A DNA stretch of 64,000 nucleotides from an uncultured Clostridia bacterium (GTDB taxonomy: Bacteria; Aerophobota; Aerophobia; Aerophobales; AE-B3A): NCBI GenBank assembly GCA_964543295.1, contig CAZIXA010000008.1:4764-68763 (forward strand), written 5' to 3'. The notes beneath the pieces are model-generated. The model searched no databases, had not been told where the DNA came from, and saw only the letters and a list, made by a program, of their open reading frames with translations. This document shows, one piece after another, positions 4,264 to 62,951 of this stretch. The stretch's first letter is position 1, and every line of letters begins with the position of its first letter. Position numbers and translations under genes: made by a program.

Positions 4264-4542
4264 TTATGCCCCTGTTTTGAGTTCCTCTTTTACCTTTTCG
4301 GCAAGATAGACTTTCATTAGAGACTGGTAGGGGATGTCTTTTTGATGAGCGATGTTCCTCAGTTGTTCAAATAGTCTTTCCGGTAGCCTAATTGAGATGT
4401 GTCTGGAAGAAGGATGCAGGTTGGGAAAATATGCTCTTTCTGCTTTTGACCAGTCAATATATTCAGTAGAATCATGGGTGCTCCAAAATTTACGTTCCTC
4501 ATCCTCGTTTTTAAATTTTGGTACCTTTTTTGATTTTTTCAT
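4264..4542 (-). CDS. brnA: BrnA-family antitoxin (CopG/RHH-like)
   Basis: 92 aa; BrnA-like motif STHDSTEYIDWSKA; overlaps upstream toxin gene. Confidence 0.6.
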   Translation of the reverse strand: MKKSKKVPKFKNEDEERKFWSTHDSTEYIDWSKAERAYFPNLHPSSRHISIRLPERLFEQLRNIAHQKDIPYQSLMKVYLAEKVKEELKTGA

Positions 4543-4825
4543 GGTATATCTTCCTTTCTTTTTTATTCATATCCCGCGCAGAAATAACCCTTATCCTTCC
4601 TCTTCGGATAATAAAAACAACAAAGAGAAAACGACCTTCGTTTGTTACACCTAAAGCAGAAATACGTTCTTCTTGAGGGAGTCCTCTCTTTTCTACTTTT
4701 GTTGTTATTGGTTCGTTAAAGAAAACTTCTTCGCATTCAAGATGGTGGACCCTGTGTTTATCCCAGTTTTTGTTTATATTACCTTCGTCCCACTCAAAAC
4801 TCTTAGATTCAGGAAAGGATTTCAT
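4511..4825 (-). CDS. brnT: BrnT-family ribonuclease toxin
   Basis: 104 aa; FEWDEGNINKNWDKHRV N-terminal signature of BrnT/UPF0125 toxins. Confidence 0.6.
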   Translation of the reverse strand: MKSFPESKSFEWDEGNINKNWDKHRVHHLECEEVFFNEPITTKVEKRGLPQEERISALGVTNEGRFLFVVFIIRRGRIRVISARDMNKKERKIYHEKIKKGTKI

Positions 4826-5764: not shown

Positions 5765-7603
5765 ATGGTTTTAACACTTCGCAAAAAGATTCTCATTGGC
5801 TATGGAATAGCTTTGGCTTTGATGATCATCGTCGTAGTATGGGCGTTGGTCAATCTCCTCACCCTGGGGCAGGCTAGCGACGCTATTCTTGAGGAAAATT
5901 ACAGGAGTATTCTTGCCGCCGAGAATATGGTTGACGCCATTGAGCGACAGGATAGCGCAATACTTTTGGTAATGCTTAACTACGGAGATGAGGGGTTGAG
6001 ACAGTTCCGGGAAAATGAGAGCCAGTTTTTACAGTGGCTTGCCCGGGCAAAAGATAATATTACGATTGAAGGAGAAGATAAGGTCATCGGCGCCATTGAT
6101 TTAGGATACTCATCGTATTTGGTTAACTTCTCCAGACTGAGAGAGCTTTATCGAACTGATCCACAAAAGACAGCTGCATTTTATCACGAGAGCGTGCTTC
6201 CCTCATTTAAGTCAGTGCGTGATACATGTATACGCTTGCGTGAAATTAATCAGGAGACCATGTTTAAAACCAATGTCCATGCGCAGCAGGTTGCTCGAAA
6301 GGCTATTTGGTCCATGGTTATGCTGAGTGTTATCACCGTCGGGGTAGGGTTGGGATTTAGCCTGCTGCTGTCAAATCTTCTTGTAAGGCCACTTCGACAA
6401 ATAATGGAAGCAATAAAAAAGCTCGCCGAAGGTATCTATGACGTGAAAGTTCCGACTACCTCTTCCGATGAACTTGGACGTCTTGGTAGCGAGTTTAACA
6501 CCATGGCCAGAAAACTCAAGATATACCACGATTTAGATATAACACGGATCATAGCGGAAAAGCAGAAGAGTGAGGCTCTCATCCGAAAAATTGACGATGG
6601 CATTATAGTTGTGGATGGGGAGCTAAGAATTACTAACATAAATCAAACAGCAGCTAAAATTTTTGATGTTGAACCTGATAATGTGCAGGGTAGACATTTC
6701 TTAGAAGTAATTAGGAATGAAGAGCTATTCAATTATATAAAGAATGCGGCTGAATCAGGAAAATCTCCTACAATTGGGGAAGGCAAGAATATCTTGACAA
6801 TGCAACACGATGAAACAATGTATCATTTTATGTTTTCAATTACACTTGTTTATACTAAACCTGAAGGTACGTTGGGAGTAGTTCTACTTTTGCGTGACGT
6901 AACCAGGTTAAAAGAGCTTGACCGTCTAAAAAGTGAGTTTGTTATGAGGGCATCTCATGAGTTGCGAACTCCCATGACGAGTATAGGTATGAGCATTGAT
7001 CTTCTTCGGGAAAGTGCTACAAAAAAACTAAACGAGAAGGAACAGCAACTGCTTTCGGCTGCTTATGAGGAGTCAAAGCGACTCAAAGTCCTTGTTAACG
7101 ATTTATTAGAACTTTCCAAAATTGAAGCAGGCAAAATAGACATGGAATTTGGCCGTGTTTCGGTAGGTGCGCTCTTTGAAAAAGCTGTCGCTGTCTTGAA
7201 GGCTCAGGCCGATGAAAAATCAGTCGAGCTTTCTTTTAAACTTGCGGAAACATTACCGAAGGTAAAGGCAGATATCAATAAAATAACCTGGGTGTTAACC
7301 AATCTGGTCTCTAATGCTTTGCGTTATACTGACAGGGGCGGACATATTTGCTTATTCGCTGACTGTGCAGGTTCCCAGGTCCACATTTCGGTGAGCGATG
7401 ACGGAGCTGGTATTCCGTATGAATACCAGTCTAAGATTTTTGATAAGTTTGTCCAGGTCAAAGCTGATAAGGAGGCTGGGAGCAGTGGGCTTGGGCTGGC
7501 TATTTGTAAGGAAATTGTCCATGCCCACGGGGGTACTATTTGGCTGGATTCGACACCCGGTGAAGGAAGTACCTTCACTTTCACGCTCCCGATTGCAGAA
7601 TAG
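5765..7603 (+). CDS. membrane sensor histidine kinase (TM-sensor-TM-HAMP-PAS-HisKA-HATPase_c)
   Basis: 612 aa; HAMP (LVRPLRQIMEAIKKLAEG), H-box FVMRASHELRTPMT, G1/G2 boxes (DDGAGIP, GSSGLGLAI). Confidence 0.8.
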   Translation: MVLTLRKKILIGYGIALALMIIVVVWALVNLLTLGQASDAILEENYRSILAAENMVDAIERQDSAILLVMLNYGDEGLRQFRENESQFLQWLARAKDNITIEGEDKVIGAIDLGYSSYLVNFSRLRELYRTDPQKTAAFYHESVLPSFKSVRDTCIRLREINQETMFKTNVHAQQVARKAIWSMVMLSVITVGVGLGFSLLLSNLLVRPLRQIMEAIKKLAEGIYDVKVPTTSSDELGRLGSEFNTMARKLKIYHDLDITRIIAEKQKSEALIRKIDDGIIVVDGELRITNINQTAAKIFDVEPDNVQGRHFLEVIRNEELFNYIKNAAESGKSPTIGEGKNILTMQHDETMYHFMFSITLVYTKPEGTLGVVLLLRDVTRLKELDRLKSEFVMRASHELRTPMTSIGMSIDLLRESATKKLNEKEQQLLSAAYEESKRLKVLVNDLLELSKIEAGKIDMEFGRVSVGALFEKAVAVLKAQADEKSVELSFKLAETLPKVKADINKITWVLTNLVSNALRYTDRGGHICLFADCAGSQVHISVSDDGAGIPYEYQSKIFDKFVQVKADKEAGSSGLGLAICKEIVHAHGGTIWLDSTPGEGSTFTFTLPIAE

Positions 7604-10918: not shown

Positions 10919-11198
10919 TAAAGACTGAACTCTCCTTAGAGATCTCCTAAATCAAAGAACAACAACGCCTTATTACTCTTCTCTGGCAAATCGCTTATAT
11001 CTCCCTCTTCACCTTAATCTTTCATTCTAGTGTCGGTTCACCATATTCATTGTTCTTAATGTCATGAATTCTAGAACAAAATTCCTAGTTGTCAACCTAA
11101 CGTTCAGCAGAGTGGATCCTATTTTGACACCTACCACTTTTCAGCTACCATAAGAATAAATTCTTCAGGAGTAATCAATTAAAACAGGAGGTATTGCA

Positions 11199-11474
11199 AT
11201 GAACAAAGCAGAATTAGTAGAGGAAGTAGCAGGAAAAGTTGGACTGACAAAGAAGGAAACTAACAATGTAGTGGACGCTATAACGTCAGCCATTACTGAT
11301 TCTCTGGTAAGAAACGAAAAAGTAATATTGGTTGGACTCGGCACATTTGAAGTGAGGAGGCGAAAAACTCGGACAGGAGTTAATCCTCAAACTAGACAAA
11401 GGTTAGTTATTCCTGCGATGAATGTGGCTAGATTCAAAGCGGGAAAAGGATTAAGAGAAAGGGTGGGTAGGTAA
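11199..11474 (+). CDS. hup: HU-family nucleoid-associated DNA-binding protein
   Basis: 91 aa; MNKAELV...GFGTFEV..R..R.GRNP.T signature; SD aacaGGAGGtatt. Confidence 0.85.
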   Translation: MNKAELVEEVAGKVGLTKKETNNVVDAITSAITDSLVRNEKVILVGLGTFEVRRRKTRTGVNPQTRQRLVIPAMNVARFKAGKGLRERVGR

Positions 11475-11515
11475 CGTTGATATCGGAAGTGTAGAGAAAT
11501 AAAAGACAAAGTTCT

Positions 11516-11836
11516 ATGGATATCGATAGACGTAAACTATTAAGAACACTAATTACAGAGGATTTATGGAAAAGGCTATCTCCAGAAGAAGTTAGGCTAT
11601 ATCTTCTTCTTGTAATTTCTATTGATGAGACAAAGGAAATAGGGGAACTAAGAAAACGGGATATTGAGAAATGTCTGGGATATAGTCTAACTGTTGGGCA
11701 ATTAGAAAAAATTACCCATACTTTCCGAGAACTTAACTTAGCTGAGATAGAATATTCTAAGGAGAAATCAGAGGTAAAATTTACACTCGTGGGAAAGGAA
11801 TCCTCAGACGAGAAAAACTATTCAGGTCCCAGCTAA
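11516..11836 (+). CDS. hypothetical small protein (possible wHTH); 3' end encoded out-of-frame by HU-derived DNA
   Basis: 106-aa ORF between intact hup and HU 3' copy 2. Confidence 0.35.
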   Translation: MDIDRRKLLRTLITEDLWKRLSPEEVRLYLLLVISIDETKEIGELRKRDIEKCLGYSLTVGQLEKITHTFRELNLAEIEYSKEKSEVKFTLVGKESSDEKNYSGPS

Positions 11837-11888
11837 AAAGGTTGCTAAGTTTAGACCGGGAAAGGGATTGAGGGAAGCGGTAAGGTAA
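11797..11888 (+). pseudogene. displaced HU 3'-end copy 2 (encodes ..NPQTRKTIQVPAKKVAKFRPGKGLREAVR* in HU frame)
   Basis: ~90 nt homologous to hup 3' end (11385-11474) with stop codon; followed by same tail motif as copy 3. Confidence 0.7.
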
Positions 11889-11950
11889 AAATACCAACGT
11901 TTTTTGTCCATTGAGGATTTTGAGCTTTGAAATCTGCACCTAGTCTATAA

Positions 11951-12001
11951 CAAAAGACGCAAAATTAGCCAAAATAAGAGGCTTTAATCTTTTCAATGAA
12001 G
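11951..12001 (+). repeat. tail motif copy a (caaaagacgcaaaattagccaaaataagaggctttaatcttttcaatgaag)
   Basis: ~50-bp motif repeated at 12378-12422 and 13843-13892. Confidence 0.7.
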
Positions 12002-12095
12002 GAAACCTATTGTTGATAAATCTTGATATTATACAGTTCTGTATAAGATGTTAGGCAGTAAAATAAATTAAACCGCTTGCATACAGGGGGTTATT

Positions 12096-12389
12096 ATGAA
12101 TATTCTAGGGTGGGTAGTTTGGGCTGTCGCAATGTTCATATTTATTGTTCATATTTTCCTTTTTTTCCATTCTGACCCAGGCGTTAGTCGTCTTGCAAAA
12201 CGATTTAGTTTTTTAATTGCAATAGGGCTAGCCATTACAGCATTTACAAAATTATCGAAATTCCATCTCATCTGGTGGATACCTGTTGCATATCTTTTTA
12301 ATCTTTGGGCTTTTTCGGCAAGAGTTCAGCGAGACGCTAAAAAATTTATTGAAAAGCTTAAGGGAAGAAAACAGGAGACGCCAAATTAG
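12096..12389 (+). CDS. small two-TM membrane protein
   Basis: 97 aa, two hydrophobic helices, basic C-terminus; SD acaGGGGGttatt. Confidence 0.4.
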   Translation: MNILGWVVWAVAMFIFIVHIFLFFHSDPGVSRLAKRFSFLIAIGLAITAFTKLSKFHLIWWIPVAYLFNLWAFSARVQRDAKKFIEKLKGRKQETPN

Positions 12390-12422
12390 CCAAAATAAGA
12401 GGCTTTAATCTTTTCAATGAAG
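12378..12422 (+). repeat. tail motif copy b (solo, without HU 3' fragment)
   Basis: gacgccaaattagccaaaataagaggctttaatcttttcaatgaa, 43/45 identical to copy a; overlaps stop of ORF 12096-12389. Confidence 0.7.
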
Positions 12423-12611
12423 AAAAACTTGCATTGACAGATTTCGACGTTTTCTCTTGAGCTTCTCTCGCTTCTAGGAGCACTCATTCATAACGAAGTC
12501 AGGACGGAGAGGAGACAGCAGCCCCAGGCTGAGAAGATGAATGAACATACCTGGCAGAGAAGTACCTCGGACACGAACAATCAAGTGCCATGCTAATCGT
12601 GGTTATGGAAA

Positions 12612-13610
12612 ATGAGGAACATTAAGAAAGATATTGAGCAGCTTGAAACTGCAGGAGAATTGCTGGACAAGGATTCCCCCACTGCAGCGAGACTGTCTTT
12701 GTTTCTTTTGGATAACTTGGTGGAACTTCTGATGTACAGAGTTGTTAGGCAAGAGTTCGCTTTGGATGATACACTATCTTCTGTCAAACCGCCAAAGTAT
12801 TCGGCCAGCAAGAGACGTAGGGTGCTTACGTATTTCAATGACAAAGCAAATTTTCTAGTGTCAGACCTAAAGAGATTAGACCCCCACCAGAGTTCTATCT
12901 TAAAGCTTGGACATCGCCTAAGAAACGAGGCTTACCACAGTGGCATCCTCAGAGAAAGGATTGTTATTCCACTCACTCGTATGTACTTCCGGACGGTCTG
13001 TGAGCTTCTGCCTGCTCTTTGGTTAGGGGCCGTGGGATGGAAACGTCACAGCGAGGTGACGGATTTTCTGAAGAAATATAAACTGGATTCTCAAAGCATG
13101 AACGAGGATACTTTGGGCCAAATATGCCAGATAATACTGAAAGGAAGGCAGTGCATAGTTCCCAGACTATCAAGGGTCCTTGCAGATGACTTGGTCTCAA
13201 GGATAGAGAGAACCGTTAAGAGCCTAGAGCATCTTCCTTCCCTCGGGCAAAGGCACTCACCAGAGGAGAATTTGAGATGGATACAATTCTGGGAGGAAAC
13301 CGATATGGAACTTCGTACCGGAGCGTCAGATGAGGAACTTCGCGACTTCTGGGAAAAAGTCAACATGACCCTCTCTGCGTTTCGTCCAAAGGTTGCGTTA
13401 GACACTCTCCACATTTGGAAGAATAGAGCAAGGAAAATAGAATTTGAGACTTCATATGGTGCAGCTTGTGCCAAATTTGATGAGATAGACCAATCTTTCC
13501 TCAGAATAGAAAGTCTTGTGTCGGAGGCCATTGCGGAGTATGAAAAATATATAGACCTTCAAGTAGACAGCCTAATAGAAGAGGAGCACCATGGAACCAT
13601 AGGCCAATAG
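12612..13610 (+). CDS. HEPN-like (Rx4H motif) hypothetical protein
   Basis: 332 aa, all-helical; KLGHRLRNEAYHSG matches HEPN Rx4-6H RNase motif; visibly GC-richer than neighbours. Confidence 0.4.
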   Translation: MRNIKKDIEQLETAGELLDKDSPTAARLSLFLLDNLVELLMYRVVRQEFALDDTLSSVKPPKYSASKRRRVLTYFNDKANFLVSDLKRLDPHQSSILKLGHRLRNEAYHSGILRERIVIPLTRMYFRTVCELLPALWLGAVGWKRHSEVTDFLKKYKLDSQSMNEDTLGQICQIILKGRQCIVPRLSRVLADDLVSRIERTVKSLEHLPSLGQRHSPEENLRWIQFWEETDMELRTGASDEELRDFWEKVNMTLSAFRPKVALDTLHIWKNRARKIEFETSYGAACAKFDEIDQSFLRIESLVSEAIAEYEKYIDLQVDSLIEEEHHGTIGQ

Positions 13611-13659
13611 TCCGTTTATCGGTCGGAAAACAGCGATTTCCTGGCCAGTAGCGGGAATG

Positions 13660-13775
13660 ACAAAAGAAAGATAAGAACCGGAAGGAATCCTCAGACACGA
13701 CAAACTACTCAGATCCCAGCAAAAAAAGTCCCCAAATTTAGACCGGGAAAGAGATTGAGGGAGAAGGTGAAGTAA
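13660..13775 (+). pseudogene. displaced HU 3'-end copy 3 (..KIRTGRNPQTRQTTQIPAKKVPKFRPGKRLREKVK*)
   Basis: ~115 nt homologous to hup 3' end incl. stop; followed by tail motif aaaataccaacgtttttt...gacgcaaaatt..aataagagg.tttaatcttttca.tgaa. Confidence 0.7.
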
Positions 13776-13842
13776 AAAATACCAACGTTTTTTATCCACT
13801 TTACATTTGTGGTCTTTGAAGCATGCTTATAGCAAAAGACGC

Positions 13843-13892
13843 AAAATTGGTCATAATAAGAGGTTTTAATCTTTTCAGTGAAAAAAAAAATA
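13843..13892 (+). repeat. tail motif copy c
   Basis: caaaagacgcaaaattggtcataataagaggttttaatcttttcagtgaa. Confidence 0.7.
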
Positions 13893-14189
13893 TCATTGAT
13901 AAGTTTTGACCTCTTCCTTTGGCTTCTCGTTGCTCTAAAAGTACTACTTTATAATGGGACTGAGAGCTATGAACAATCTATCTGGTCAGCTGGGTAATTT
14001 GTCTACTCCCCAAGAGCTCTTCAATACCATGCAATATTTTCACAAGTCCACTTTCTGGAGTTTAGTAGCAATTTTGGGAGGATTCTACTGTACTCTCGGA
14101 CACCATATAATGGAGAAAAAGCAAGGTATAAAACTATTACTCAACCTCAAAATCCTTGAAATAGAGTGTAGAATATTTGGAGGAATTGG

Positions 14190-14921
14190 TTGAAGGAAAA
14201 ATACAATAAAAGATATGAGGAACAAGTGAGAAGAAAGTTTTGCTCATGGCTTAAAAAACATCATTCTCGTTGGTTCATCTCAAAAAAAAATCCTATAAAA
14301 GTCGCTATACCTACAAAGGAAATTTCGTTTAGGATGGATCGACTTTCTCCTGACATAGACGTGTTGGCTTATTGTAAAGCTTCTGACAAGTTAATAAGCT
14401 ATGAGGTGAAGGGACCTACTCGTAAATACAAAGACCATTACATCATTGAAAGAAATGGGAAGATGGTAGGTTCTCAGGCTTACAAAGGTGACCTCGGAAA
14501 GCTCCAAAAAGGAAATCAAGAAAGATACAAAATAGAAAAGATTAGTCGTCCGCATTATCCGGATTTTGGAATTACTTATAAAGGAATAGGAGAGGCTCTT
14601 TTCAATCTTAGGTATGTTGATCAAAGTTTTTTAGTTCTACCTGAGGTTGTCTACCTCTCTCATTTCTCCCACCCGGTATTTCTTAATATTTTATTAGATA
14701 GACTCCTTCCTTTGGGTCTAATCAAATATGATTATTACTTGCATGTGAAAGACAACAAATTAGATATTAAGGAATTTGAGGTAATTCGTAAAGCTAAAGA
14801 CTCATCTTTGTGGAAGCGTTACAACGAGTCGCTCAAGAGAGAAAGCGATATAATTGAATTTGAGTATGAGGGTGAGGTACGGAGATATCTAAAAAACAAG
14901 CTGGAAAAAGGTGAACTTTAG
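14190..14921 (+). CDS. PD-(D/E)xK-type nuclease-like protein
   Basis: 243 aa; SPDIDVLAY...ISYEVKG (D..D...E.K) near N-terminus. Confidence 0.4.
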   Translation: MKEKYNKRYEEQVRRKFCSWLKKHHSRWFISKKNPIKVAIPTKEISFRMDRLSPDIDVLAYCKASDKLISYEVKGPTRKYKDHYIIERNGKMVGSQAYKGDLGKLQKGNQERYKIEKISRPHYPDFGITYKGIGEALFNLRYVDQSFLVLPEVVYLSHFSHPVFLNILLDRLLPLGLIKYDYYLHVKDNKLDIKEFEVIRKAKDSSLWKRYNESLKRESDIIEFEYEGEVRRYLKNKLEKGEL

Positions 14922-15054
14922 TCTGAGGTCTTTTGGCCAACATGAAGTTTCGTTCTTCTTGAATAAGGAAAGTGAACAAAACTTTCAAAGAAGGAGAATA
15001 AGCAGAACAGGGTAAATTAGGTGAAAATAAGAGATCTTAAAAGGCGGTAAAAGA

Positions 15055-15870
15055 ATGGGAGAAAACTTAGAGGAAGTGAAAATCTTGGAAATAAGTGAGG
15101 GGGAGCTGGAAAGTTTCGTAAAATTGTCTCTTGATAATATCGAAACTGGCTTAACATTAATAGACACACAGGTTAATACATACAGAGGCCCTTTAGATAT
15201 TTTAGCGGTAGATAGCGAAGGATGCTTGGTGGTTATAGAGCTAAAGGTAAAGAAGAACGACGATATGCTGTTCCAAGCTGTGGATTATTGCGATTGGGTT
15301 CAAGGGAATATAGATTCAGTAAGCAGGATGTATAGGAATATTCATCCTAAGGTGGAAGTAAACTACAAGAAGCCTCCTAGAATCATGTTAATTGCTCCCA
15401 GTTTTTCTTCTTCACTTAAGCGAAGAGCGAAGTATTTAGACATTAGTATTGATCTGTATATCTACCGGCTCATTGAGATCGGTGGTAAACGGGGCTTGCT
15501 ATTCGAACAGGTTAATATTCCTCCTCGAAGGTTTCCTTCTCCTTCTCCAAAAACGATTCCAGATCTTACGAATTATCCTCAAAATGTTGAATACAGAAAT
15601 TTAGTTGGGAAATTAGATGAAGCCATAAGACAAATTGGAGGTGATATAGAACCTTATCCCACAACTCAATATATAGGTTACAAAATTAAGGGATCCTACA
15701 TTGCTAGTATTCATCCTAGAAAGACCGCCTGCCCTTATGTAGATATTCTTGGTGAGGAAGGATGGGAATCACTCTCATTAGAGAGCCAAGATGATATTGA
15801 GAAAATTCTTAATTTGGTCAATAAGGCATATAGACTAAAAAAGGGAATGGTAGATACAAATAAGGTTTAA
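15055..15870 (+). CDS. RecB-family/NucS-like PD-(D/E)xK nuclease domain protein
   Basis: 271 aa; GPLDILAVDSEGCLVVIELKVKK (D, D, ExK) followed by QAVDY (QxxxY motif) as in RecB/Cas4/NucS/Shedu-type nuclease folds; extra C-terminal domain of unknown function. Confidence 0.55.
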   Translation: MGENLEEVKILEISEGELESFVKLSLDNIETGLTLIDTQVNTYRGPLDILAVDSEGCLVVIELKVKKNDDMLFQAVDYCDWVQGNIDSVSRMYRNIHPKVEVNYKKPPRIMLIAPSFSSSLKRRAKYLDISIDLYIYRLIEIGGKRGLLFEQVNIPPRRFPSPSPKTIPDLTNYPQNVEYRNLVGKLDEAIRQIGGDIEPYPTTQYIGYKIKGSYIASIHPRKTACPYVDILGEEGWESLSLESQDDIEKILNLVNKAYRLKKGMVDTNKV

Positions 15871-15955
15871 TTTCTAAGATAGATATGTTTAGGTTAGTAA
15901 GGTATAGAATTATCACTCAACCTCTGAACTCTTGAATAAGAAATAGGAGTAAAAA

Positions 15956-16672
15956 ATGAATATGGATTATAAAGAACTTATAAAAGGGGCTCAATTATTT
16001 GAAAATGATCCAGTGGCTCATTTTTATGACGAATATATGGAGGAGAAGAACTATCAAGAATGGGAAGATCCTCATAGTCTCTCTGATAATGAAGTGAGAA
16101 AACTTTTTGAGTTTATTATAAGTTGGGATCCTCATTTTGGGCAAGAGCGTGATAGAATTGCTGAATTTAGGCACGCATACCAAAATATTTACCCTCTTCT
16201 CAGAAAACTCGAGAGAGAAACAATCTACAATATAGCTTTTGAGGAGAGGGTGAGTAAAGGCAGCTTAATAACACATTCACAAGCCATTTTTCTTATTTTT
16301 GAGGAAATAGCACATTGCTTTAGAAGGTATGAATCAACAGATACTTCAAAAATCATTCATACACTTAATCCCCACCTATTTGTTATGTGGGATAACGCAA
16401 TTTGCTACCATATATTAGGTATTGAGTTGATAAAAAGGGCTTCGGGACATGATTACGCCTATAGATTTATGCCTTTAATGCAAAAAACTGTTAAAAAGAT
16501 TATAAGAAGTTATACGGAGAAGCATTGCTGTAATCAGGAAGAAGCAGTAAAGAGAATATCTGAATGTGGAAACAATAAGACTTTAGCTAAGTTGATAGAT
16601 GAGTATAATTGGGTTTATAAAAATAACCCGGAGAAATTGAAAAGAGCCCACTTCGGCAAAGAGAAAAACTGA
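15956..16672 (+). CDS. hypothetical protein, partner of downstream SIR2-like gene (18-bp gap)
   Basis: 238 aa, helical, no motif I recognise. Confidence 0.5.
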   Translation: MNMDYKELIKGAQLFENDPVAHFYDEYMEEKNYQEWEDPHSLSDNEVRKLFEFIISWDPHFGQERDRIAEFRHAYQNIYPLLRKLERETIYNIAFEERVSKGSLITHSQAIFLIFEEIAHCFRRYESTDTSKIIHTLNPHLFVMWDNAICYHILGIELIKRASGHDYAYRFMPLMQKTVKKIIRSYTEKHCCNQEEAVKRISECGNNKTLAKLIDEYNWVYKNNPEKLKRAHFGKEKN

Positions 16673-16689
16673 AACAAGAAACTACGAAC

Positions 16690-17718
16690 ATGTCTGAAGA
16701 AAAGACTGTATACTTCTTAGGTGCGGGGGCCTCAAATGCTTCTGATTTTACCCTCCCAATAACGGATGGGTTTTTTCGGAAAGACGATCTTAGTCTGGAA
16801 AATTTTTCTGAGCTTCGCAAATTCATTGAGAGCACCTTTCATGGGGTTCTTTCCGAAAACCTCAATTTGGAGGATGTGATTAGTCACCTGGAGCTAAGTG
16901 TAGACAGATTTGGCTCGTTCGGGAAACGTCCTGATGCCTATCTTTATGATGCCAGAGAGCAGTTCAACCAATACGTTAGGATGCGATTGGATTATGAGTC
17001 TGTGGAGGGTAGACTCTGGTGTCCAAAATTCAAAGAGATTTTCCAAAGTCTGAACCCGAACGATACTATTATCACTCTAAATTATGATCTCATCACGGAA
17101 AATACGCTAAATGCTATTTCACACGAAAAAGGGGTGAAGGAAAATCATACGTTGTACACAAAAATGGTTCAACTGCTTAGTCTGGACATCTACTGCAGTG
17201 GCATATTAGGAATCGACGTTCCCGAAAGGAAATTGGAATCTGGTTGGTATCTGAAACTGCATGGTTCAACTAATTGGTATTATTGTTCCAACCCGCACTG
17301 TCTGGGTCACCAGATTATGAACGTACTCGCCATGCCTGTGGGCGGTCCTCCCCGTAATTGCAATTCTTGCGGTTCTCCTCTTGAGATGGCGATTGTCCCT
17401 CCCACGATGAATAAGGCCTTCGGAAAGTATCCCAAATTGGGAATCATATGGAGTCTAGCTCGCCAGGAAATTGCTTCATCTACCTCCATTGTATTCATAG
17501 GTGTTTCCTTTAGGCCTTCAGATTACTATCTGAGTTGGCTAGTCAAATCATCATTCTTAGGGGCAAAGAGTAAAGACAAATCAGTCGTAGTCGTTGACAA
17601 GTGTGAATCAGTCGCCCACCGAATAGCCAAGATGATTGGTGTGAAACCAGTTTATTGCGATAATATTGACTCATATATCTCGTCAAGAAAGGAAAATAAA
17701 AAGGAGATGAACGGCTGA
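16690..17718 (+). CDS. SIR2-like (SIR2_2 family) NAD-binding domain protein with inserted zinc ribbon
   Basis: YFLGAGAS (GAGxS), ITLNYD (catalytic Asn motif), LKLHGS (catalytic His), CxxHC...CNSC zinc module, IVFIGVSF; same order/spacing as ThsA/DSR-type defensive SIR2 domains. Confidence 0.6.
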   Translation: MSEEKTVYFLGAGASNASDFTLPITDGFFRKDDLSLENFSELRKFIESTFHGVLSENLNLEDVISHLELSVDRFGSFGKRPDAYLYDAREQFNQYVRMRLDYESVEGRLWCPKFKEIFQSLNPNDTIITLNYDLITENTLNAISHEKGVKENHTLYTKMVQLLSLDIYCSGILGIDVPERKLESGWYLKLHGSTNWYYCSNPHCLGHQIMNVLAMPVGGPPRNCNSCGSPLEMAIVPPTMNKAFGKYPKLGIIWSLARQEIASSTSIVFIGVSFRPSDYYLSWLVKSSFLGAKSKDKSVVVVDKCESVAHRIAKMIGVKPVYCDNIDSYISSRKENKKEMNG

Positions 17719-17885
17719 AAGCTAACGACTAAAGGTAAGAGGAGAGAATTATCTGCTAAAGAGAGGCGTAATAGACTAATTATAAAGCTCTGGTTCGAGG
17801 CGCAATTGGAATCGGGCTAATTAAGATTTTATTCTGATTAACAAGAAAAAACACGCACATAGAGGCTCATAGAGCCACTTTCTTA

Positions 17886-17988
17886 AGGAAAGGTAACCTG
17901 TAACCTGGGTAAATTTAAGCTCCTCTATCAAGAGATTTTTTTTAAGCCAGTTGCGAGAATAGAGGGATTTTTAGGAAAGGGAGAGGAG
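17886..17988 (+). promoter_or_regulatory. conserved ~105-nt leader, copy 1 (upstream of 84-aa ORF)
   Basis: aligns with 18321-18422: aagg.aacct.ta..ggtaaa.ttaa...tatcaagaga.ttt...aagc.agttg.g.ata.gggat..taggaaagggag + SD. Confidence 0.45.
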
Positions 17989-18243
17989 ATGAGAAAAATG
18001 ACGAAGTTCAGGAAAGTATTTTACACCATCGGAATACTGGTGATCATCTTTTTGTGTCTGTGGATAATCAGGGAAATTTTCATTCTCAAACCTCCTCCAG
18101 AAACACAAACTTTGTGGGAGAAATGGACCCAAGGAGACAGACGAAAGATGATTGAGGAAAAATGGAAGGCTTTAAAAAAGACCGAGAAAGAGTTAGAGGA
18201 ATTAAAGAAAGTACGGAAACAGCTTGAAGAGCTGGGGAAGTGA
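17989..18243 (+). CDS. small single-TM protein with charged coiled-coil tail
   Basis: 84 aa; TM GILVIIFLCLWIIREIFIL. Confidence 0.35.
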   Translation: MRKMTKFRKVFYTIGILVIIFLCLWIIREIFILKPPPETQTLWEKWTQGDRRKMIEEKWKALKKTEKELEELKKVRKQLEELGK

Positions 18244-18320
18244 GACAAGAGGCATGAATATGAACAACTTCATCGACAAGAAAAACCGCCTTCACAGAAG
18301 ATTATATACGAAGTTTTCTC

Positions 18321-18422
18321 AGGGTAAGGCAACCTATATGGCCTAGGTAAAATTAAAGTGTTTATATCAAGAGAATTTTATCAAGCTAGTTGTGGTATAG
18401 GGGGATCATAGGTAAAGGAGGT
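18321..18422 (+). promoter_or_regulatory. conserved ~105-nt leader, copy 2 (upstream of 194-aa ORF)
   Basis: see copy 1. Confidence 0.45.
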
Positions 18423-18433
18423 GATACGATCGG

Positions 18434-19018
18434 ATGCTATCGGAAATGATAGTTTTGCCAAAACCGATAACGAGATGCATAGTCATCCTCACCGTTTTTT
18501 TCCTGGCCAACGGTCAAGTTGTTGCCACCCAAACCGCTCTGCGTGGCCTATATGTTGGTAAAGTTGTCAGTAAAGAACCAGAAAGCGATCAAGTAGGCCA
18601 GGCTTGGGCGGAAGCTCTTCGTACAAAGCTCGTAAGAGAGTACTCCGGACGAGACACTTTCTTGATTGTTCCCGTGGATCAAAAGGATATCGAGCATACG
18701 TTGGCCATATTGAACTCATTCTTAGATATGTATTCAGACCCCGAAATCCCAGAAGAATTTGCCTGGGTTCTTCCAAGTGGAATGATAGAATCCGGAATAA
18801 GGAGATGGATCTATCAGCGTGATTTGTATGGTATGGTTAGTTGGGAAAGTTTGATTCCCAGCCTTCTGCTTACTATGGCTCACCAACAGGGTTACCGGAT
18901 CGAACACGTCACAAGTAGTTATGTGATCCTTGCTAAACCTGTCTATGAGGAAGAGGAAAGAAAATGGGAAGACCGAATAAAGGAATATGAGGAAAAGAAT
19001 AAAAGTGAAAGTGGGTAA
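18434..19018 (+). CDS. secreted/membrane-anchored hypothetical protein
   Basis: 194 aa; N-terminal hydrophobic segment CIVILTVFFLANGQVVA. Confidence 0.4.
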   Translation: MLSEMIVLPKPITRCIVILTVFFLANGQVVATQTALRGLYVGKVVSKEPESDQVGQAWAEALRTKLVREYSGRDTFLIVPVDQKDIEHTLAILNSFLDMYSDPEIPEEFAWVLPSGMIESGIRRWIYQRDLYGMVSWESLIPSLLLTMAHQQGYRIEHVTSSYVILAKPVYEEEERKWEDRIKEYEEKNKSESG

Positions 19019-19034
19019 AGATGGGTGAGGAACT

Positions 19035-19508
19035 ATGAAATACTCTCTAATTGAGGGCTTAGCAGCTTTGGCAAGTTTTGGAGTTGTGTTGTTGGCGAAT
19101 AACGACCTTTACAGGTATGTGAGGAGGTTCCTTCTCCCAAAGAATAGTAAGATAGGAATAGATACTGCTTTTTTTCATCTTGTACCCTCGTTGGGTCTTG
19201 CATATCTTGCGGGTATTCTTGGCCGCATAGTTATTAAATCAGATATCCTGCTCGACCTTGATAAGCTTCTTATGTTGGCTGTGGTGCTGGGCTTGTCGAT
19301 GCCTTTTCTCGTAACTTTCCACCGGCTATTTTCAGACATAATCTCTGCTTTGTCCGAAAAACGAGGCAGTTTATTTAAAAGGGCCATGTTTGCGGTGTGG
19401 GGAGGATTATTTGTTGGCTTTGTTGTGTCGTCGTGGTACATATGGTATGGGTTAGCAATGTTTATTTTTATCTTCTTGCTACCTCCCATTTCGAAATACG
19501 TCCGCTAA
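19035..19508 (+). CDS. integral membrane protein (4 TM)
   Basis: 157 aa hydrophobic. Confidence 0.4.
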   Translation: MKYSLIEGLAALASFGVVLLANNDLYRYVRRFLLPKNSKIGIDTAFFHLVPSLGLAYLAGILGRIVIKSDILLDLDKLLMLAVVLGLSMPFLVTFHRLFSDIISALSEKRGSLFKRAMFAVWGGLFVGFVVSSWYIWYGLAMFIFIFLLPPISKYVR

Positions 19509-19605
19509 TCATTAGATTAGATTCTGATTAATGATACAGTCAACGTAGTTCTGGAGAGAGAAGAGCGGAAGGAAAAATCTAAGAGAATTATAGGAGAAAT
19601 AGGAG

Positions 19606-20553
19606 ATGAAATTACTGACAGGTAAAATTATTCCTATTCTGATACTCGTATTGGTTCTTTCTTGCCTCTCAGCTTATGCCAATGTTCAAATCATGAGCTA
19701 CAACGTCAAAGATTTCTGGCTGAGGTTTGATGGAGAATCTGGCAGCATGACAGATGAAGGCGCTGCATTAAACGAAAGAGATCTTGAAAGGCTCGAGGTC
19801 ATCGCTGGTGTTATTAATGAAAGGAAACCGGATGTTATCGGAATATTGGAATGTGCAAGCCTGGCTGAGCTGATATTCTTCAATGAGCGATTTTTAAAGG
19901 GGGAATACAGATGTTGGAGTTTTCGAGCTTACGACTCAAGAACTTTTGGGATTCCGCTTGGACTCATGGTAAAAAAGGATGTGCAAGTTAAATCAGTCGA
20001 TCTCGTTGAGCCCAGATCCTTTAGTTCTAGAGGAATTATAATTGCGGATATTGTAAAAGGTGATTACGAATTTACGCTATTCCTCGTTCATCTCAAATCC
20101 AAAATAGAACAAAAGTTAGGTGAATCAGCTCTTAAAAGAGATAGACAAGGAAATCGTCTTCGTGAAATAATAAAGGGAAAACTGGAAGAGAATCCTAATG
20201 CCAACATTATCATCTGTGGTGATTTCAATGATTCTCGTGGTCGGGATGATCAAGAAAAGGCTGCGGATGTGGAGGACTTAATAGGCAAAGTGGTGAAACC
20301 AATTATGCTAGGAGACAGGACACAAGTAGCAATTTACAGTTCCACCTTAGAGCATAAGGATCAAGACATAAATGGCCAATTATGGACGGAAAAAAGTAAG
20401 GGACATGCTCCAATTCAATTTGATTATTTCTTTCTCACGCAAGGTGCGAATGATGAATTCGTTAATCTAGATCATGTTTATCCAGAAGAATTTCAAAATA
20501 TACTTAGGGCGTCTGACCATATTCCCATTGTTTTGGATCTTCGGGATGAATAA
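19606..20553 (+). CDS. secreted endonuclease/exonuclease/phosphatase (EEP) family protein
   Basis: 315 aa; signal peptide; EEP motifs IMSYNVKDF, ILEC, ICGDFND, SDHIPIVLDL. Confidence 0.6.
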   Translation: MKLLTGKIIPILILVLVLSCLSAYANVQIMSYNVKDFWLRFDGESGSMTDEGAALNERDLERLEVIAGVINERKPDVIGILECASLAELIFFNERFLKGEYRCWSFRAYDSRTFGIPLGLMVKKDVQVKSVDLVEPRSFSSRGIIIADIVKGDYEFTLFLVHLKSKIEQKLGESALKRDRQGNRLREIIKGKLEENPNANIIICGDFNDSRGRDDQEKAADVEDLIGKVVKPIMLGDRTQVAIYSSTLEHKDQDINGQLWTEKSKGHAPIQFDYFFLTQGANDEFVNLDHVYPEEFQNILRASDHIPIVLDLRDE

Positions 20554-21517: not shown

Positions 21518-24500
21518 CTAACCGTTGCTGCTCAATGAGGCAACAGCAGGGGTAATTCCGGACCTGCGGTAGACCTCATCAATCTTTTCTTGAAGTTCAA
21601 TCGTGAGCTGAATCGCTTTTTCCACCTTCATATAATGGTCAATCTCATCCAGACAAAGCTTCCGGCCTCTTCTATCCTTCAGGTATTTCTCCATTACCTG
21701 ATAAGCTCCGATTCGGTATTCCCACACTTCTTTCGAGATACCCTCAAAACACTGACCTTTGTTGATATAGACTCTTTGGCTCCCTTCATCATATTGCACC
21801 TTTTCCATTTTATTGGAGCCACTTACTGGGTAGCCAATCTCGGTTTGGGAAAGAGAAAAGTGTTTAAATAAATGAAGTTCAACAAGCTCTTTACCAAGAT
21901 TGCTCAAAGTCCTGAAAACTTCATAATCTTTCGGTAAGGGAATCCTAGGAAAGTCTATTTTGAGGAATTCCTGGTAACGCTTTCGGTAGGTGGAGGAGTA
22001 AAGCACGGCATAGATGTAATAAAAAATCTTTTCTGGAGCCGGTTCCATTTCATGAGATTCTTTTACCGCCTGCAAGAATTTATCGGTGAAATTTGGAATT
22101 TTCGGTTCTCCAGACAATTCCTGGGAAAGAGCCAGATCTTCACGTCCATGCTGGTAAAGGTAAAGAGGGAAGCAGTAACAATTATCCCTTGAGGAGATAA
22201 GAGTTTTGTCTGTTATGTGGGAGGTAACCAGAATGTGCCGCCAAATAGGATCTCTTAGCCTCTTCGTAAGATTTATTGCTAAATTACTCCTTTCTATCAT
22301 ATGTCTCATCAGTTTAAACCTATCTCTTTCAACAAGTGCCCAATGATAACAGATGTATCGCCAATCAAAGGGCCTGTAGTCATAGAGATAGATTAAATCC
22401 TCCCATTTTTTACCTTTGACTTTTTCCCGTATCTTCGAAACCATCCAATCCTTGGTGTCCTTCAATTTCAAGTCCATCTTGATTAAATCACTCGTCAGTG
22501 ACCCTGTGAATACCTTCATTCTTTGTACTATCTCATCGCTTGTAAATCCTACTACAAGATGATCTCGTGCGGTGGTTACACCGAAAGACCACTGTCTGAA
22601 GATCTCCGTTATCTTCCAGAATTTCTCATACTCCTCTTGCAGAGCAAAATCTTTAGGAACAAAGAAGTAGTAAGGAGCGACAGGCTTAAGTTCTTGCCAC
22701 TTAGTTGTCTCGGTGTCGTTTTCCGAGAGGTATCCGTATTTTTTACTTCTCAGACCCCAAAGGTCCGCATAGTAGACTTTCTTTTCTTTCTCTGGTCTCT
22801 CAAGTTTTACATAGAGGGCAATAGTAACCCCCTGCTGGATGTCAAATACATTCTCGTCTTTGCCGCCTTCGGGGGTCAGCTCACTTATTCTTGAGGAACC
22901 ATGCAGATTTAAAAGATAAATCTCATTAAAGGTCTCTAAAAGTTTACTCCGCATCCCCCGATGAATTACCCCTGAAAGATAGGAGTTATTGGTGATAAAC
23001 CCCAAGATTCCTTTACCAGCTTGCTCTATTTTCCATTGACCAAAGCGGATAAACTTTATGTAATCATCAGAAAGAGGCTGGATATTTCGCTCCTTCCTCA
23101 CGTCTTCCTTGTAAGTATCCATCAAGTCTTCAATGAAATCCGACTTGTTTTCTGAGCTCACTGAATAAGGAGGATTGCCCAAAACAACCAAAATGGGAAT
23201 TTCTTCCTTTATTTTTTTAGCTTCACGCCCTTCTTTTGTAAGGTCAATGAGGAAACTTATCTGTCTGGGTTCTTTCATCTCCAGAGTATTGGTGAGGTAA
23301 AACTTGAATCGTTCACCTTCCTTGAACCTATAACCCATCTCTTCCAAGACCATCGATACCTTGAAATGACCTACTGTATAGGGAGCCATAAGGATTTCAA
23401 AAGCATGAAAATGGGGCAAGATATGCTCTTCTATATAAGATTTAACAAGTCCTCCTTTATTTCTTTCTTCTAGCTCCCCCTGCACTTGCTTGATTGCCTG
23501 GACGAGAAAGGTCAAAGTGCCTGCTGCCGGATCAAGAAGGGTTACATCTCTGGTGGCAAGTCCTTCGACCTTTGAAAATTTTTGCTTTAAGAGTTTGTGA
23601 ATTGACCTCGTGATATAGGAAACCACTGGCAGAGGGGTATAATAAACTCCTAATCTTTGTCTTTCTTGAGGATTATAAGTAGCAAGGAAGGTTTCGTAAA
23701 AGTGAATTACCGGGTCCTCATCCCACCGAGTCGTCTTGAACTCCTTAAGAATTGAGGAAATATCGGCCTTCTCAAGCACTTGACTTATGTCATCAACAAT
23801 CCAGGATAAGGATTCTGGGAAATGTGGTCCAACAAAGGAATAAAAAATTTCCTTGAGTAAGGGTAAACTCTGAGGGATGGATTCCCAGGCAACTTCCCTT
23901 TTGAAGCCATTTTCAACCCTCATTCTGGCGGCAAAAAGTCCATAGCTCATAGTCTGGGCGTAAAGGTCTGCGAATCGCTCTTCACTCAAGGTCTCTATAA
24001 GTTCTTCTTGAAAGGCTTTGTAAAATCTCGTCACCTCTTCATTCTTACCTGAAAGCTCTTCCTGTAAAATATGTTCAAGAAATCGGGTTCTCTTGGCCAG
24101 TTCAATGGAAAGGTCAGAGGAGGTCTTTATCTCAGGTGCAGAAAAAGAGAAGAATTTTTCAAGAAGCTGGAAGAATAGATCTAACTTCTCAGGAAGGGGA
24201 GGATGCTTCAATCTCTGCAAAGTAAATTGCCGACCCACCTCCACCTGATCAATCAGACTGCCTTTCCGGTATAACCTGAACTCCAAGAAATTGGTCAAAA
24301 TGAGGTTAGGAAGTGAGCCCAGATACCTCCTGAGCTGCTCGGAGCCTTCAACTTCTCTGAGGCTGGCATCAGGTGGTTTTGCTTCAATGTATCCAACGAT
24401 TTCGCCATTTTTACCGATGCGAAAGTCAGGGATTCCTACTTCTGTTCTTCTAGGTAAAACAATAACGTTTGCCCTTGCTTGTATTTGAAAAAATCGGGAA

Positions 24501-24634
24501 AGTTCTTCAATGAATCCCTTAAGTGCAGGATAGAAGCTTTCTTCCCTGAAATTGCCACCTGTATAAATCTCATGGATTTCCCTAATGTAGCTGCTAAGAG
24601 TTTTTTCGAATTTGTCTCTTTGCCTTTTCTTCAT
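21518..24634 (-). CDS. MmeI-family Type IIL (IIG) single-chain restriction-modification enzyme
   Basis: 1038 aa; N-terminal PD-ExK (GIPDF...GYIEAKP), gamma-class N6-adenine MTase motif I LLDPAAGTLTFL and motif IV NPPY, C-terminal TRD-sized region. Confidence 0.7.
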   Translation of the reverse strand: MKKRQRDKFEKTLSSYIREIHEIYTGGNFREESFYPALKGFIEELSRFFQIQARANVIVLPRRTEVGIPDFRIGKNGEIVGYIEAKPPDASLREVEGSEQLRRYLGSLPNLILTNFLEFRLYRKGSLIDQVEVGRQFTLQRLKHPPLPEKLDLFFQLLEKFFSFSAPEIKTSSDLSIELAKRTRFLEHILQEELSGKNEEVTRFYKAFQEELIETLSEERFADLYAQTMSYGLFAARMRVENGFKREVAWESIPQSLPLLKEIFYSFVGPHFPESLSWIVDDISQVLEKADISSILKEFKTTRWDEDPVIHFYETFLATYNPQERQRLGVYYTPLPVVSYITRSIHKLLKQKFSKVEGLATRDVTLLDPAAGTLTFLVQAIKQVQGELEERNKGGLVKSYIEEHILPHFHAFEILMAPYTVGHFKVSMVLEEMGYRFKEGERFKFYLTNTLEMKEPRQISFLIDLTKEGREAKKIKEEIPILVVLGNPPYSVSSENKSDFIEDLMDTYKEDVRKERNIQPLSDDYIKFIRFGQWKIEQAGKGILGFITNNSYLSGVIHRGMRSKLLETFNEIYLLNLHGSSRISELTPEGGKDENVFDIQQGVTIALYVKLERPEKEKKVYYADLWGLRSKKYGYLSENDTETTKWQELKPVAPYYFFVPKDFALQEEYEKFWKITEIFRQWSFGVTTARDHLVVGFTSDEIVQRMKVFTGSLTSDLIKMDLKLKDTKDWMVSKIREKVKGKKWEDLIYLYDYRPFDWRYICYHWALVERDRFKLMRHMIERSNLAINLTKRLRDPIWRHILVTSHITDKTLISSRDNCYCFPLYLYQHGREDLALSQELSGEPKIPNFTDKFLQAVKESHEMEPAPEKIFYYIYAVLYSSTYRKRYQEFLKIDFPRIPLPKDYEVFRTLSNLGKELVELHLFKHFSLSQTEIGYPVSGSNKMEKVQYDEGSQRVYINKGQCFEGISKEVWEYRIGAYQVMEKYLKDRRGRKLCLDEIDHYMKVEKAIQLTIELQEKIDEVYRRSGITPAVASLSSNG

Positions 24635-25359: not shown

Positions 25360-25686
25360 CTATTCTTCTAGCAGAGCTTTAAGAACTTTTAAGACAAGCT
25401 TAAGAGCTTTTGCATTTTTATTGCGCAGAAGATTTGTTATCTCTTCTCTTAAGCCAACTTCGGTAGAAGGCCTTTCTGGGAAAGAAAAGAGTTCAGCAAT
25501 ACTCACATTTAGCCCCTTAGCAATTTTTTCAATACTTTGGAGTGAGAGATTTCTTTCTCCTCGTTCTACAGCGCCAATATACGTGTAATGAAGGTTAGCC
25601 TTGGCAGCCAATTTTTCTTGTGACAGACCTTGCATCTTTCTCAATTCTTTTATTCTATTTCCCAATTTAACCAGTATCTGACTCAT
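25360..25686 (-). CDS. XRE-family helix-turn-helix transcriptional regulator (possible controller protein)
   Basis: 108 aa; LRKMQGLSQEKLAAKANLHYTYIGAVERGERNLSLQSIEKIAKGL. Confidence 0.7.
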   Translation of the reverse strand: MSQILVKLGNRIKELRKMQGLSQEKLAAKANLHYTYIGAVERGERNLSLQSIEKIAKGLNVSIAELFSFPERPSTEVGLREEITNLLRNKNAKALKLVLKVLKALLEE

Positions 25687-58518: not shown

Positions 58519-59112
58519 GTGATGAAAAGAGGTGATTTATTGGAATGGTTGAAAAGATCTCCACGAAGAACAGCAGTTATAAAAGTAATGACAAAGCCTA
58601 AAATGCCTTCGGAGATTCACGAACAAGCTTCGAAAGGGGTTGTCTCTCTCAGTAACACATGCGAGATTCTAAAGGCATTGTTGGAAGAGGGTTTAGTAAC
58701 TTGTATCAATCCAAGGGAGAAAATTGGAAAGTTATATGGGCTCACAAAGACAGGGAGAGCGTTAAGAAAAAGGACATATCCTAATAAACCGAGTTATCAA
58801 GATATTCCCAACGACATTATGGAAGAGTATACCTACGTCGTACGGGGCAAGCATAGAAGGGCAGTAATTAAAGTAATTTATGATAGAAAAACACCTAGCG
58901 AAATACACAGGGATGTTGTAAAGGCCACTGAAAATGTATCTCCCGGCAGCATAAATTATGTAAAACTATCTCTCAATAGCACAAGCGATACCTTAAGGGG
59001 ATTTAGAAAGAAGGGTATTGCAATCTGCATCAATAAAGAAAAAAGAGTTGGAAGATTATATGAACTTACGAAGAAAGGTAAAGTGATAAGAGAGCAGATG
59101 CTGAGAGAGTAG
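58519..59112 (+). CDS. tandem-duplicated winged-helix DNA-binding protein (two ~95-aa repeats)
   Basis: repeats RRTAVIKVM.KP..PSEIH....G...KL.L and RRAVIKVIYDRKTPSEIHRDV.. ; divergent from the surface-protein gene. Confidence 0.45.
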   Translation: MMKRGDLLEWLKRSPRRTAVIKVMTKPKMPSEIHEQASKGVVSLSNTCEILKALLEEGLVTCINPREKIGKLYGLTKTGRALRKRTYPNKPSYQDIPNDIMEEYTYVVRGKHRRAVIKVIYDRKTPSEIHRDVVKATENVSPGSINYVKLSLNSTSDTLRGFRKKGIAICINKEKRVGRLYELTKKGKVIREQMLRE

Positions 59113-62871: not shown

Positions 62872-62910
62872 GTCTTCTATCCTCAGAAGAGATCCTCAAA
62901 GATTTCGCCC

Positions 62911-62951
62911 AGTCAATTATATACGAAATCAGCTTTTTGTTAAGTTTGAGG
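62911..62951 (-). promoter_or_regulatory. duplicated upstream element of AlbA_2 paralogs (copy 1)
   Basis: tcaattatatacgaaatcagctttttgttaagtttgagg vs 63681-63720 tcaattgtatacgaaattcgctttttgttaagtttgga. Confidence 0.4.

Follow-up and report, generated by a model that had tools for sequence, protein, structure and literature searches.

In islands that target tRNA or tmRNA genes, in tandem arrays of integrative and conjugative or integrative and mobilizable elements, and in "additive" flexible islands, integrative elements accrete at the 3' end of a conserved gene. Homology-facilitated illegitimate recombination, described for natural transformation, combines a one-sided homologous anchor with a joint at microhomology. 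For the accretion of integrative elements, dusA is a protein-gene example (PMC4482086), and the concept of homology-facilitated illegitimate recombination is mentioned in PMC6382021. Here we analyze the region behind hup, the gene for the nucleoid protein HU, in a 64-kb stretch of contig CAZIXA010000008.1 from an uncultured sediment lineage (the whole stretch is called the window, and positions are counted from its first letter). Our literature searches turned up no description of integration into hup or of arrays of hup relics. An earlier note on this DNA had described the 3' end of hup as present three times, with a shared tail, and had proposed an integration or recombination hotspot built by successive site-specific insertions. 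Our analysis indicates that the window carries one intact hup gene and the relics of three hup-led units of another sequence type, and the locus is best read as a homology-driven hotspot of gene gain and erosion rather than as an integrase attachment site.

Results

The intact hup gene (11199-11474, + strand) encodes an HU of 91 amino acids (Pfam Bac_DNA_binding, E = 4e-30). In 853 HU homologues, a nearly identical N-terminal part is combined with one of two C-terminal types: type A, ending in ..NPQTRERLDIPAKNVVRFKAGKGLRERVGK, is that of the intact gene in the window, and type B, ending in ..NPQTRKTIQIPAKKVPKFRPGKGLREKVK, is that of two further hup segments downstream. These were located with nhmmer and a DNA profile of 82 related hup genes, which gave no extra match below E = 1 over the 64 kb. 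Fragment 2 (11796-11888, +; left end 11796/11799) is a 5'-truncated type-B hup covering profile nucleotides (nt) 181-268 plus a TAA stop (E = 4.6e-18), and fragment 3 (13664-13775, +; left end 13662/13664) covers nt 162-268 plus TAA (E = 3.3e-18). Both are in-frame and stop-terminated, encoding NPQTRKTIQVPAKKVAKFRPGKGLREAVR and KRKIRTGRNPQTRQTTQIPAKKVPKFRPGKRLREKVK, and gave tblastn matches to type-B HU of 83 and 81%, respectively. The in-frame HU C-terminal ends with stop codons that had been reported downstream of hup are real in both cases, at E values of ~1e-18. At the DNA level, however, the fragments are 61% identical to the 3' end of the resident hup as against 82% to each other, and fragment 2 is 90% identical to the hup 3' end of a related sediment metagenome contig (L063); because of these values, they are not repeats of the resident 3' end. 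Fragment 3 is 86% identical both to a fragment in L109 and to the hup of L101. We take the two to be foreign-type (B) HU 3' relics, themselves without function. What had looked like one 3' end found thrice, with the last ~90 nt of hup recurring, is a single intact type-A gene followed by two 3' relics of a different type.

The tail had been placed after each HU end, but it follows the two fragments only; the sequence 3' of the intact hup, cgttgatatcggaagtgtagagaaata, is the same as in other type-A loci and the closest relatives. A distal 30-mer of the tail occurs three times in the window against 0 occurrences expected by chance, inside 78-nt copies at 11949-12026, 12370-12447, and 13831-13908. 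A tail profile of ~172 nt has matches immediately behind the intact type-B hup of L086 (twice), L084, L104, and L167-L170; the tail is thus the spacer that natively separates a type-B hup from the gene downstream. An origin of the fragments from the resident hup fails on the same point, since their tails are the downstream region native to intact type-B genes. Tail copy 1 (11889-12031, +; profile positions 2-133 of ~172) is a right-truncated form of this region, and 11799-11996 matches the 3' end and downstream region of an intact L086 hup at 84.5%, with similar matches in L084 and L104. Tail copy 3 (13776-13952, +; positions 2-172, nhmmer E = 1.6e-38) is full length and ends at the start codon of ORF79 (where ORF denotes an open reading frame). 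Taken together, a fragment and its tail align colinearly, at 74-85%, with the end of an intact type-B hup (hupB) and the region behind it in L086 (twice), L084, L104, and L167.

Tail copy 2, with its leader (12344-12611, +; clear homology from 12370; nhmmer tail profile E = 1.4e-30), had been described as a solo tail. The extra copy is real, but it belongs to a hupB-tail-ORF unit as in L167-L170: the solo tail, leader, and ORF332 (12370-13558) are colinear with L167 3659-4842, where they stand after a full-length hup, and the counterpart of the unit in these relatives is hupB-tail-ORF318. The solo tail is the relic of a third hupB unit minus its hup part. Because the tail is the native hupB downstream region, its three copies represent three type-B unit relics, and the window reads, in order, hupA-ORF106 / delta-hupB + tail-ORF97 / tail-ORF332 / delta-hupB + tail-ORF79. 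We put the 417/421-bp spacing seen in the first two modules down to chance, and the positions of ORF106 and ORF97 within the two do not match. The stretch 12393-19610, which contains fragment 3 and its tail (the tail in L165), is recovered at 100% identity in independent Logan assemblies. Logan contigs break at 12393, in a 40-nt exact repeat of the tail (11972-12011 and 12393-12432) that puts the copy number or presence of the 421-bp ORF97 segment beyond the reach of short-read assemblies.

A further repeat, here the type-3 element (repeat family D6, nhmmer profile), begins AGCAAGGTAtAaAAc..CTCAACCTC and occurs at 14117-14201 (+) and again at 15890-15943. It directly follows the hup stop codon in at least 10 related loci (two copies in L069, and L063, L080, L108, and others), an association for which sampling could partly account, as all fetched loci were hup-centred. 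Neither copy in the window has an HU remnant; they may be further relics of hup units.

The comparison set comprised 86 non-redundant hup loci, window included. More than one hup segment is present in 14 of these (again counting the window), and in all 13 that belong to the close family, the window included, the segments have the same orientation; the exception is the distant L125. An intact hup, one or a few ORFs, and then an HU 3' fragment, the arrangement of the window, is also found in L066/L095, L097, L069, and L101 with differing cargo, and a single ORF separates gene from fragment in five of eight independent cases; the window, L066/L095 (with a cold-shock (CSD) gene), L097, and L069 show this form. 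Truncated hup relics occur in L068, L072, and L109 as well, and many fragments in relatives have decayed through frameshifts or lost stops, as in L066, L095, and L097. In L068 one upstream ORF adjoins hup at nt 59, and in L069/L072 the same ORF adjoins it at nt 164. The earlier view of the hup 3' region as a recurrent recombination junction where variable accessory genes begin is borne out by these relatives.

Intact tandem hup copies are present in L069 (three within 5.6 kb), L086, L104, and L118, and graded truncations of one unit, hup-ORF168, are seen in its intact form in L089, cut at nt 59 in L068, and cut at nt 159 in L109. With the nonsense-mutated copy of L167 as a further intermediate, and with native flanks kept, these are the features of decayed tandem paralogues. 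They favor a reading by erosion alone, in which four complete ancestral hup-led units, every one with a promoter of its own, stood in tandem and three microhomology-mediated deletions removed the promoters and 5' parts of the type-B genes (once the whole hup); the native tail kept by each relic also agrees with it. Erosion would, however, require three deletions each ending 0-60 nt from the end of the preceding ORF, and likewise in relatives, and it leaves unexplained the type-B resemblance of the surviving promoter and the re-assortment of 3' thirds onto different 5' parts, both described below. We judge pure erosion to be rather unlikely. In L167 (3326-3598), and identically in L168, L169, and L170, the full-length type-B hup has an in-frame TAG at codon 51 (GFGTF*VVNKK); the four contigs come from four separate sample records, and the interrupted gene would be either a pseudogene fixed in one population or a case of a recoded stop.

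The hup genes are themselves mosaic. In pairs that are 85-90% identical over the first 180 nt, identity over the last 72 nt ranges from 54 to 96%, and identity to the closest of the other units is 76-96% over the promoter and 5' 144 nt, whereas it falls to 50-60% for the 3' thirds. Sliding identity divides the window hup (11199-11474, +) into three parts: a type-B-like promoter, a 5' part of 140-150 nt like L066/L067/L068, and a type-A 3' third (..QRLVIPAMNVARFKAGKGLRERVGR) that, together with ORF106, is like L070 and L061. The promoter and 5' untranslated region (11122-11198, +; TTGACA-16-TACCAT at 11124-11151 by consensus promoter scan) start at a sharp onset of homology to more than 20 other hup loci at 11122/11123. 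By sliding identity, the nearest counterparts of this promoter are those of type-B units (L085 96%, L167 88-92%); the region 11122-11198 matches the promoters of L085, L167, and L080 at 92-96% and is less similar to other type-A loci. In a terminator and promoter scan it alone stood above chance. The 3' third of hup, the stop with 27 nt, and ORF106 form one type-A block (11341-11790, +) common to L061, L062, and L070, with alignments of 87% over 588 nt in L061 and 84% over 610 nt in L070 that both stop at 11785/11786. Compared with the window, L070 is ~60% identical in the 5' part and ~90% in the 3' third plus ORF106, and L071/L094 show the same pattern with a block made of the 3' third and a cold-shock (CSD) gene. 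Maximum chi-square analysis placed the breakpoint at ~nt 144 in three of four triplets (p = 0.0002) and at nt 160 in the fourth (p = 0.0012), the triplets representing at least two independent events, and inspection narrowed the breakpoints to nt 141-155, after the GFGTF codons and before a purine tract.

These breakpoints lie inside a conserved anchor and next to heterologous DNA, the arrangement of recombination resembling homology-facilitated illegitimate recombination. The earlier idea that incoming DNA brings a replacement 3' end fits a mosaic hup whose 3' third travels with the downstream gene. The intact gene is thus mosaic and the fragments are of the other type, yet the type-A 3' third is found clade-wide in loci without fragments. 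We considered whether this third and ORF106 are a recent cassette and rejected it; among type-A loci, at least two different genes are found behind hup, and there are no fragments.

A 3' third that is far more variable than the 5' part and uncoupled from it, next to two fragments that both keep reading frame and stop codon, would also be expected of silent donor cassettes analogous to pilS/pilE, with gene conversion from the promoterless fragments switching the DNA-binding C-terminal third of the expressed HU. The loci fit such a system poorly: each has just one or two fragments, many of those in relatives (L066, L095, L097) have decayed, the fragments sit among unrelated cargo genes with native tails attached, and relics entirely without HU sequence exist (the solo tail and the type-3 elements). 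We regard silent cassettes as highly improbable.

The left ends of the 3' fragments lie at profile nt 59, 159, 160, 162, 164, 175, 181, 185, 191, and ~222, and in 8 of 10 independent fragments they fall at nt 159-191, clustered and not fixed. Most are in or next to the purine-rich tract GAAAGAAAGGCAAGAAGAGGAG (codons 53-60), inside which fragment 3 begins; several left flanks are purine-rich too, and they have no motif in common. At the joint of ORF106 and fragment 2 (11791-11798, +), alignments with L061/L070 on one side and with L086/L063 (hupB) on the other reveal that ORF106 lacks its native last codons and stop, and an AAGG microhomology is possible there. The clean ends of a cassette are thus missing, and the fixed crossover core that alignment of the units was to define reduces to AATCCTCA(A/G)AC, common to the intact hup and the fragments with nothing else shared, while the left ends range from nt 59 to ~222. 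In fragment 2 a 9-10-bp inverted match links the HU NPQ codons (AATCCTCAA, 11799-11807) to TTGAGGATT (11911-11919), ~25 nt past the stop; it is present in four of eight tails (fragment 2, L086a, L086b, and L075) and missing from fragment 3, L104, and L113.

Given the explanation first offered for the locus, we searched for the machinery that it would need. That model has site-specific insertion at an attB in the beta-arm region of hup (NPQT codons), each event bringing a 3' end, by a recombinase acting in trans in the manner of integrons or Xer-exploiting elements. The spacing of one ORF between hup and fragment in five of eight cases, the clustering of left ends, the shared core, the inverted match in half of the tails, and the co-oriented array all speak for it. 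No recombinase, however, was detected among the scanned ORFs from 11.5 to 59.4 kb (Pfam, PHROGs, and PADLOC on ORFs at 11.5-26.4 kb); the sole integrase of the window (59446-60783, -) lies 48 kb away, beyond the post-hup genes including a polysaccharide cluster. No integrase is found within 35 kb of hup, and almost none near hup in the 86 loci, where tblastn with IntI1 and the window integrase gave matches in L077, L124, and L125 only. This absence leaves the attB mechanism unsupported, and the truncation points (nt 59, 159-164, 175-191, and ~222), the left flanks without a common motif, the clipped ORF106, the lack of a conserved arm, and the tails lacking the inverted repeat count against it as well. 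The related proposal of cassettes mobilised in trans found no circular form and no viral counterpart. Linkage, moreover, runs the wrong way: it is always the hup 3' end that goes with its downstream gene, never an upstream ORF with a fragment. We consider the attB model improbable. Of the hotspot as first proposed, the recombination is partly supported, probably driven by homology, and the integrase attB site is not supported.

An integron was tried as a candidate and rejected. No IntI-like gene was found at the head of the array, where trkA/trkH and a two-component system lie upstream of hup. Folding of fragment plus proximal tail as single-stranded DNA, on both strands, gave no attC-like structure (z -1.1 to +0.75 against shuffles). 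In an integron cassette an ORF is followed by its own recombination site, and no fragment follows the homologues of ORF332 (in L167-L170, where hup and tail come before) or of ORF106 (in L061 and L070). A phage or satellite origin was also rejected, the best viral HU being 54% identical and the tail having no viral match. One version of a specific mechanism deserves separate mention, namely a dedicated trans-acting system that uses the beta-arm segment of hup (nt ~140-190) as attachment site and stacks modules behind a promoter that is among the strongest of the cell. We think it quite improbable; if it existed, it would be a functional analogue of an integron with a nucleoid-protein gene as expression platform, and each insertion would also swap the DNA-binding C terminus of HU.

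The cargo genes themselves are obscure. Searches of Pfam, PHROGs, and PADLOC returned no function for ORF106 (11516-11836, +; no family, homologues in L061 and L070), ORF97 (12096-12389, +; a small hydrophobic protein without a family match), ORF332 (12612-13610, +; the native downstream gene of the hupB-tail unit in L167-L170, with 10 homologues, none with a Pfam domain), or ORF79 (13954-14193, +; no family match). ORF332-family genes occur in integrase-bearing contexts too: in L171, a contig without hup or tail, short Phage_integrase-domain ORFs (2462-2704 and 7001-7570) flank a homologue of 59%. Farther downstream the window encodes a defence-like PDC-S18/S11-like NucS_C protein (15055-15870), a defence-like SIR2 protein with a weak match (16690-17718), a Type IIG/ISP restriction-modification fusion enzyme (21518-24634, -; PADLOC E = 1e-246), and an HTH_3 regulator (25360-25686, -). 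The last two are the sole minus-strand genes in an otherwise co-oriented stretch at 11-26 kb. The description of everything downstream as defence cargo was overstated, for it holds for the restriction-modification, PDC-S18/S11-like, and weak SIR2 genes only and the other ORFs have no family match. GC content dips mildly behind hup, to 0.36-0.43, and comparison set no limits to the island, as the window has only hup and ORF106 in common even with its nearest hup loci.

A conserved ~170-nt element at 17805-17980 and 18272-18420, with many copies in L058, L061, L069, and L101, lies directly upstream of small ORFs, among them cold-shock (CSD) genes in the case of relatives. One 9-bp stem (CCTCTATC...GATAGAGG) is invariant, but Rfam gave no match and covariation is nearly absent, which favors a portable promoter or leader over a structured RNA. 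From 26.5 to 54 kb lies a polysaccharide biosynthesis cluster (Wzz/GNVR tyrosine kinase, epimerases, radical SAM/SPASM, and sugar transferase) with a GC content of 0.32-0.37, below that of the region behind hup. The integrase at 59446-60783 (-) is a tyrosine integrase of 445 amino acids with a C-terminal zinc-ribbon-like CxxC...CxxC motif; its neighbours, at 58519-59112 and 62350-63665, are a winged-helix protein and two Schlafen/AlbA_2 genes, and the group probably forms a mobile or defence island of its own near the distal end of the window. On the other side of hup, a BrnT-family toxin gene (4511-4825) and an overlapping small ORF upstream of it (4264-4542) probably form a BrnTA toxin-antitoxin pair (4264-4825, -).

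Searches for the genomic context of the window were mostly negative. The window contains no tRNA or tmRNA gene over its 64 kb, and Rfam gave no match within 10.9-26.5 kb. The window HU is a 100% match to P0001, and exact-protein look-ups for the window HU, P0001, ORF97, and ORF106 returned zero matches. The best matches of the upstream TrkH are in an unclassified metagenome-assembled genome (72%) and in metagenome-assembled genomes of Planctomycetota/Sedimentisphaerales (60-67%), and synteny based on trkH was uninformative, as none of the 57 fetched genome loci had hup downstream.

Discussion

We lean, with somewhat better than even confidence, toward homology-anchored recombination at hup, sealed at microhomology, that adds and erodes cargo units behind the gene. 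The lineage would carry several hup copies in one orientation, nearly identical in promoter and 5' two-thirds, each unit consisting of hup, a downstream leader of ~170 nt, and a cargo gene. The conserved promoter and 5' two-thirds would serve as the homologous anchor, so that the divergent 3' third moves along with whatever gene lies downstream, and the far side of the exchange would be sealed illegitimately just past the homology, preferably at the purine-rich tract or similar tracts. The product would be an intact hup that ends in the incoming 3' third and is followed first by the incoming cargo and next by the orphaned 3' third of the resident with its native tail, and repeated events with later deletions could give the present order of the window. 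Homology-anchored recombination would explain why the fragments are of a foreign type and keep their native tails and why they are co-oriented and spaced by single ORFs, and equally the mosaic breakpoints, the junction cluster, and the absence of an integrase. A type-B-like promoter on the window hup is also what it predicts, because the promoter would have stayed put while inserts accumulated behind it. The sequence comparisons establish what the fragments and tails are, their recurrence in relatives, the mosaic breakpoints, the variable truncation points, and the absence of a recombinase, whereas the direction of the events (insertion and not erosion) and the use of microhomology are inferred.

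Several observations weigh against this reading. The left ends fall within ~30 nt and two independent breakpoints within ~15 nt, tighter than simple homologous recombination predicts, and a sequence-specific enzyme may be involved. The matches proposed as microhomologies are short and were picked out post hoc, and purine-rich sequence is common before genes. None of the fetched contigs matches both flanks of the window hup, so there is no pair of empty and occupied sites to give the direction of the event. The type-A loci L058, L061, L067, and L070 have no type-B fragment, which makes the type-A 3' third old in the clade and not a recent arrival. The data are those of the window alone and not of the whole genome, and hup copies or recombinases located elsewhere would be unseen. 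Finally, pure erosion of a tandem array, with its documented intermediates, would give the same end state and is hard to separate from homology-anchored gain.

If homology-anchored recombination is correct, a multi-copy housekeeping gene gives an uncultured sediment lineage the homology with which to gain, shuffle, and lose small accessory genes, and the DNA-binding third of HU is re-assorted in the same process. It would amount to a recombinase-free route to a hypervariable island with a protein gene instead of a tRNA gene at its center. The locus also carries a practical warning, that partial 3' gene copies do not by themselves point to integrase att sites. Only behind one feature, the tight cluster of junctions at hup nt 140-190, could a specific mechanism still lie hidden.

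Among known systems, the locus is a variant of island accretion combined with paralogue decay, at an unusual multi-copy protein-gene anchor. As in islands at gene 3' ends, co-oriented partial 3' copies of a conserved gene border successive accessory modules, and the 3' part of the intact gene has another origin than its 5' part. The hup locus differs in having no integrase, no fixed identical core, and imprecise joints, and in that its partial copies come from paralogous or allelic hup units with their own leader, the target being a multi-copy protein gene. Integron arrays resemble it in being long and co-oriented, in holding small genes, most of them unknown, behind a locus of strong expression, and in having a recurring sequence of ~100 nt between genes, but the hup locus has no IntI, attI, or attC hairpin, and its recurring element is a protein-coding relic tied to the next gene and not to the preceding one. 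Decay of tandem paralogues would account for the intact tandem, nonsense-mutated, and 5'-truncated hup copies across relatives, although clustered truncations, re-assorted 3' thirds, and unrelated cargo between the copies set the hup loci apart. With homology-facilitated illegitimate recombination the locus shares a conserved anchor beside heterologous DNA and breakpoints in the anchor; its far joints may likewise lie at short purine-rich matches, and the outcome would be insertion with little or no loss of recipient DNA. It differs in that the process at hup is deduced from comparative sequence alone, in joints that cluster more tightly than is typical, and in an anchor that is itself a repeated gene, which makes events within one genome equally possible.

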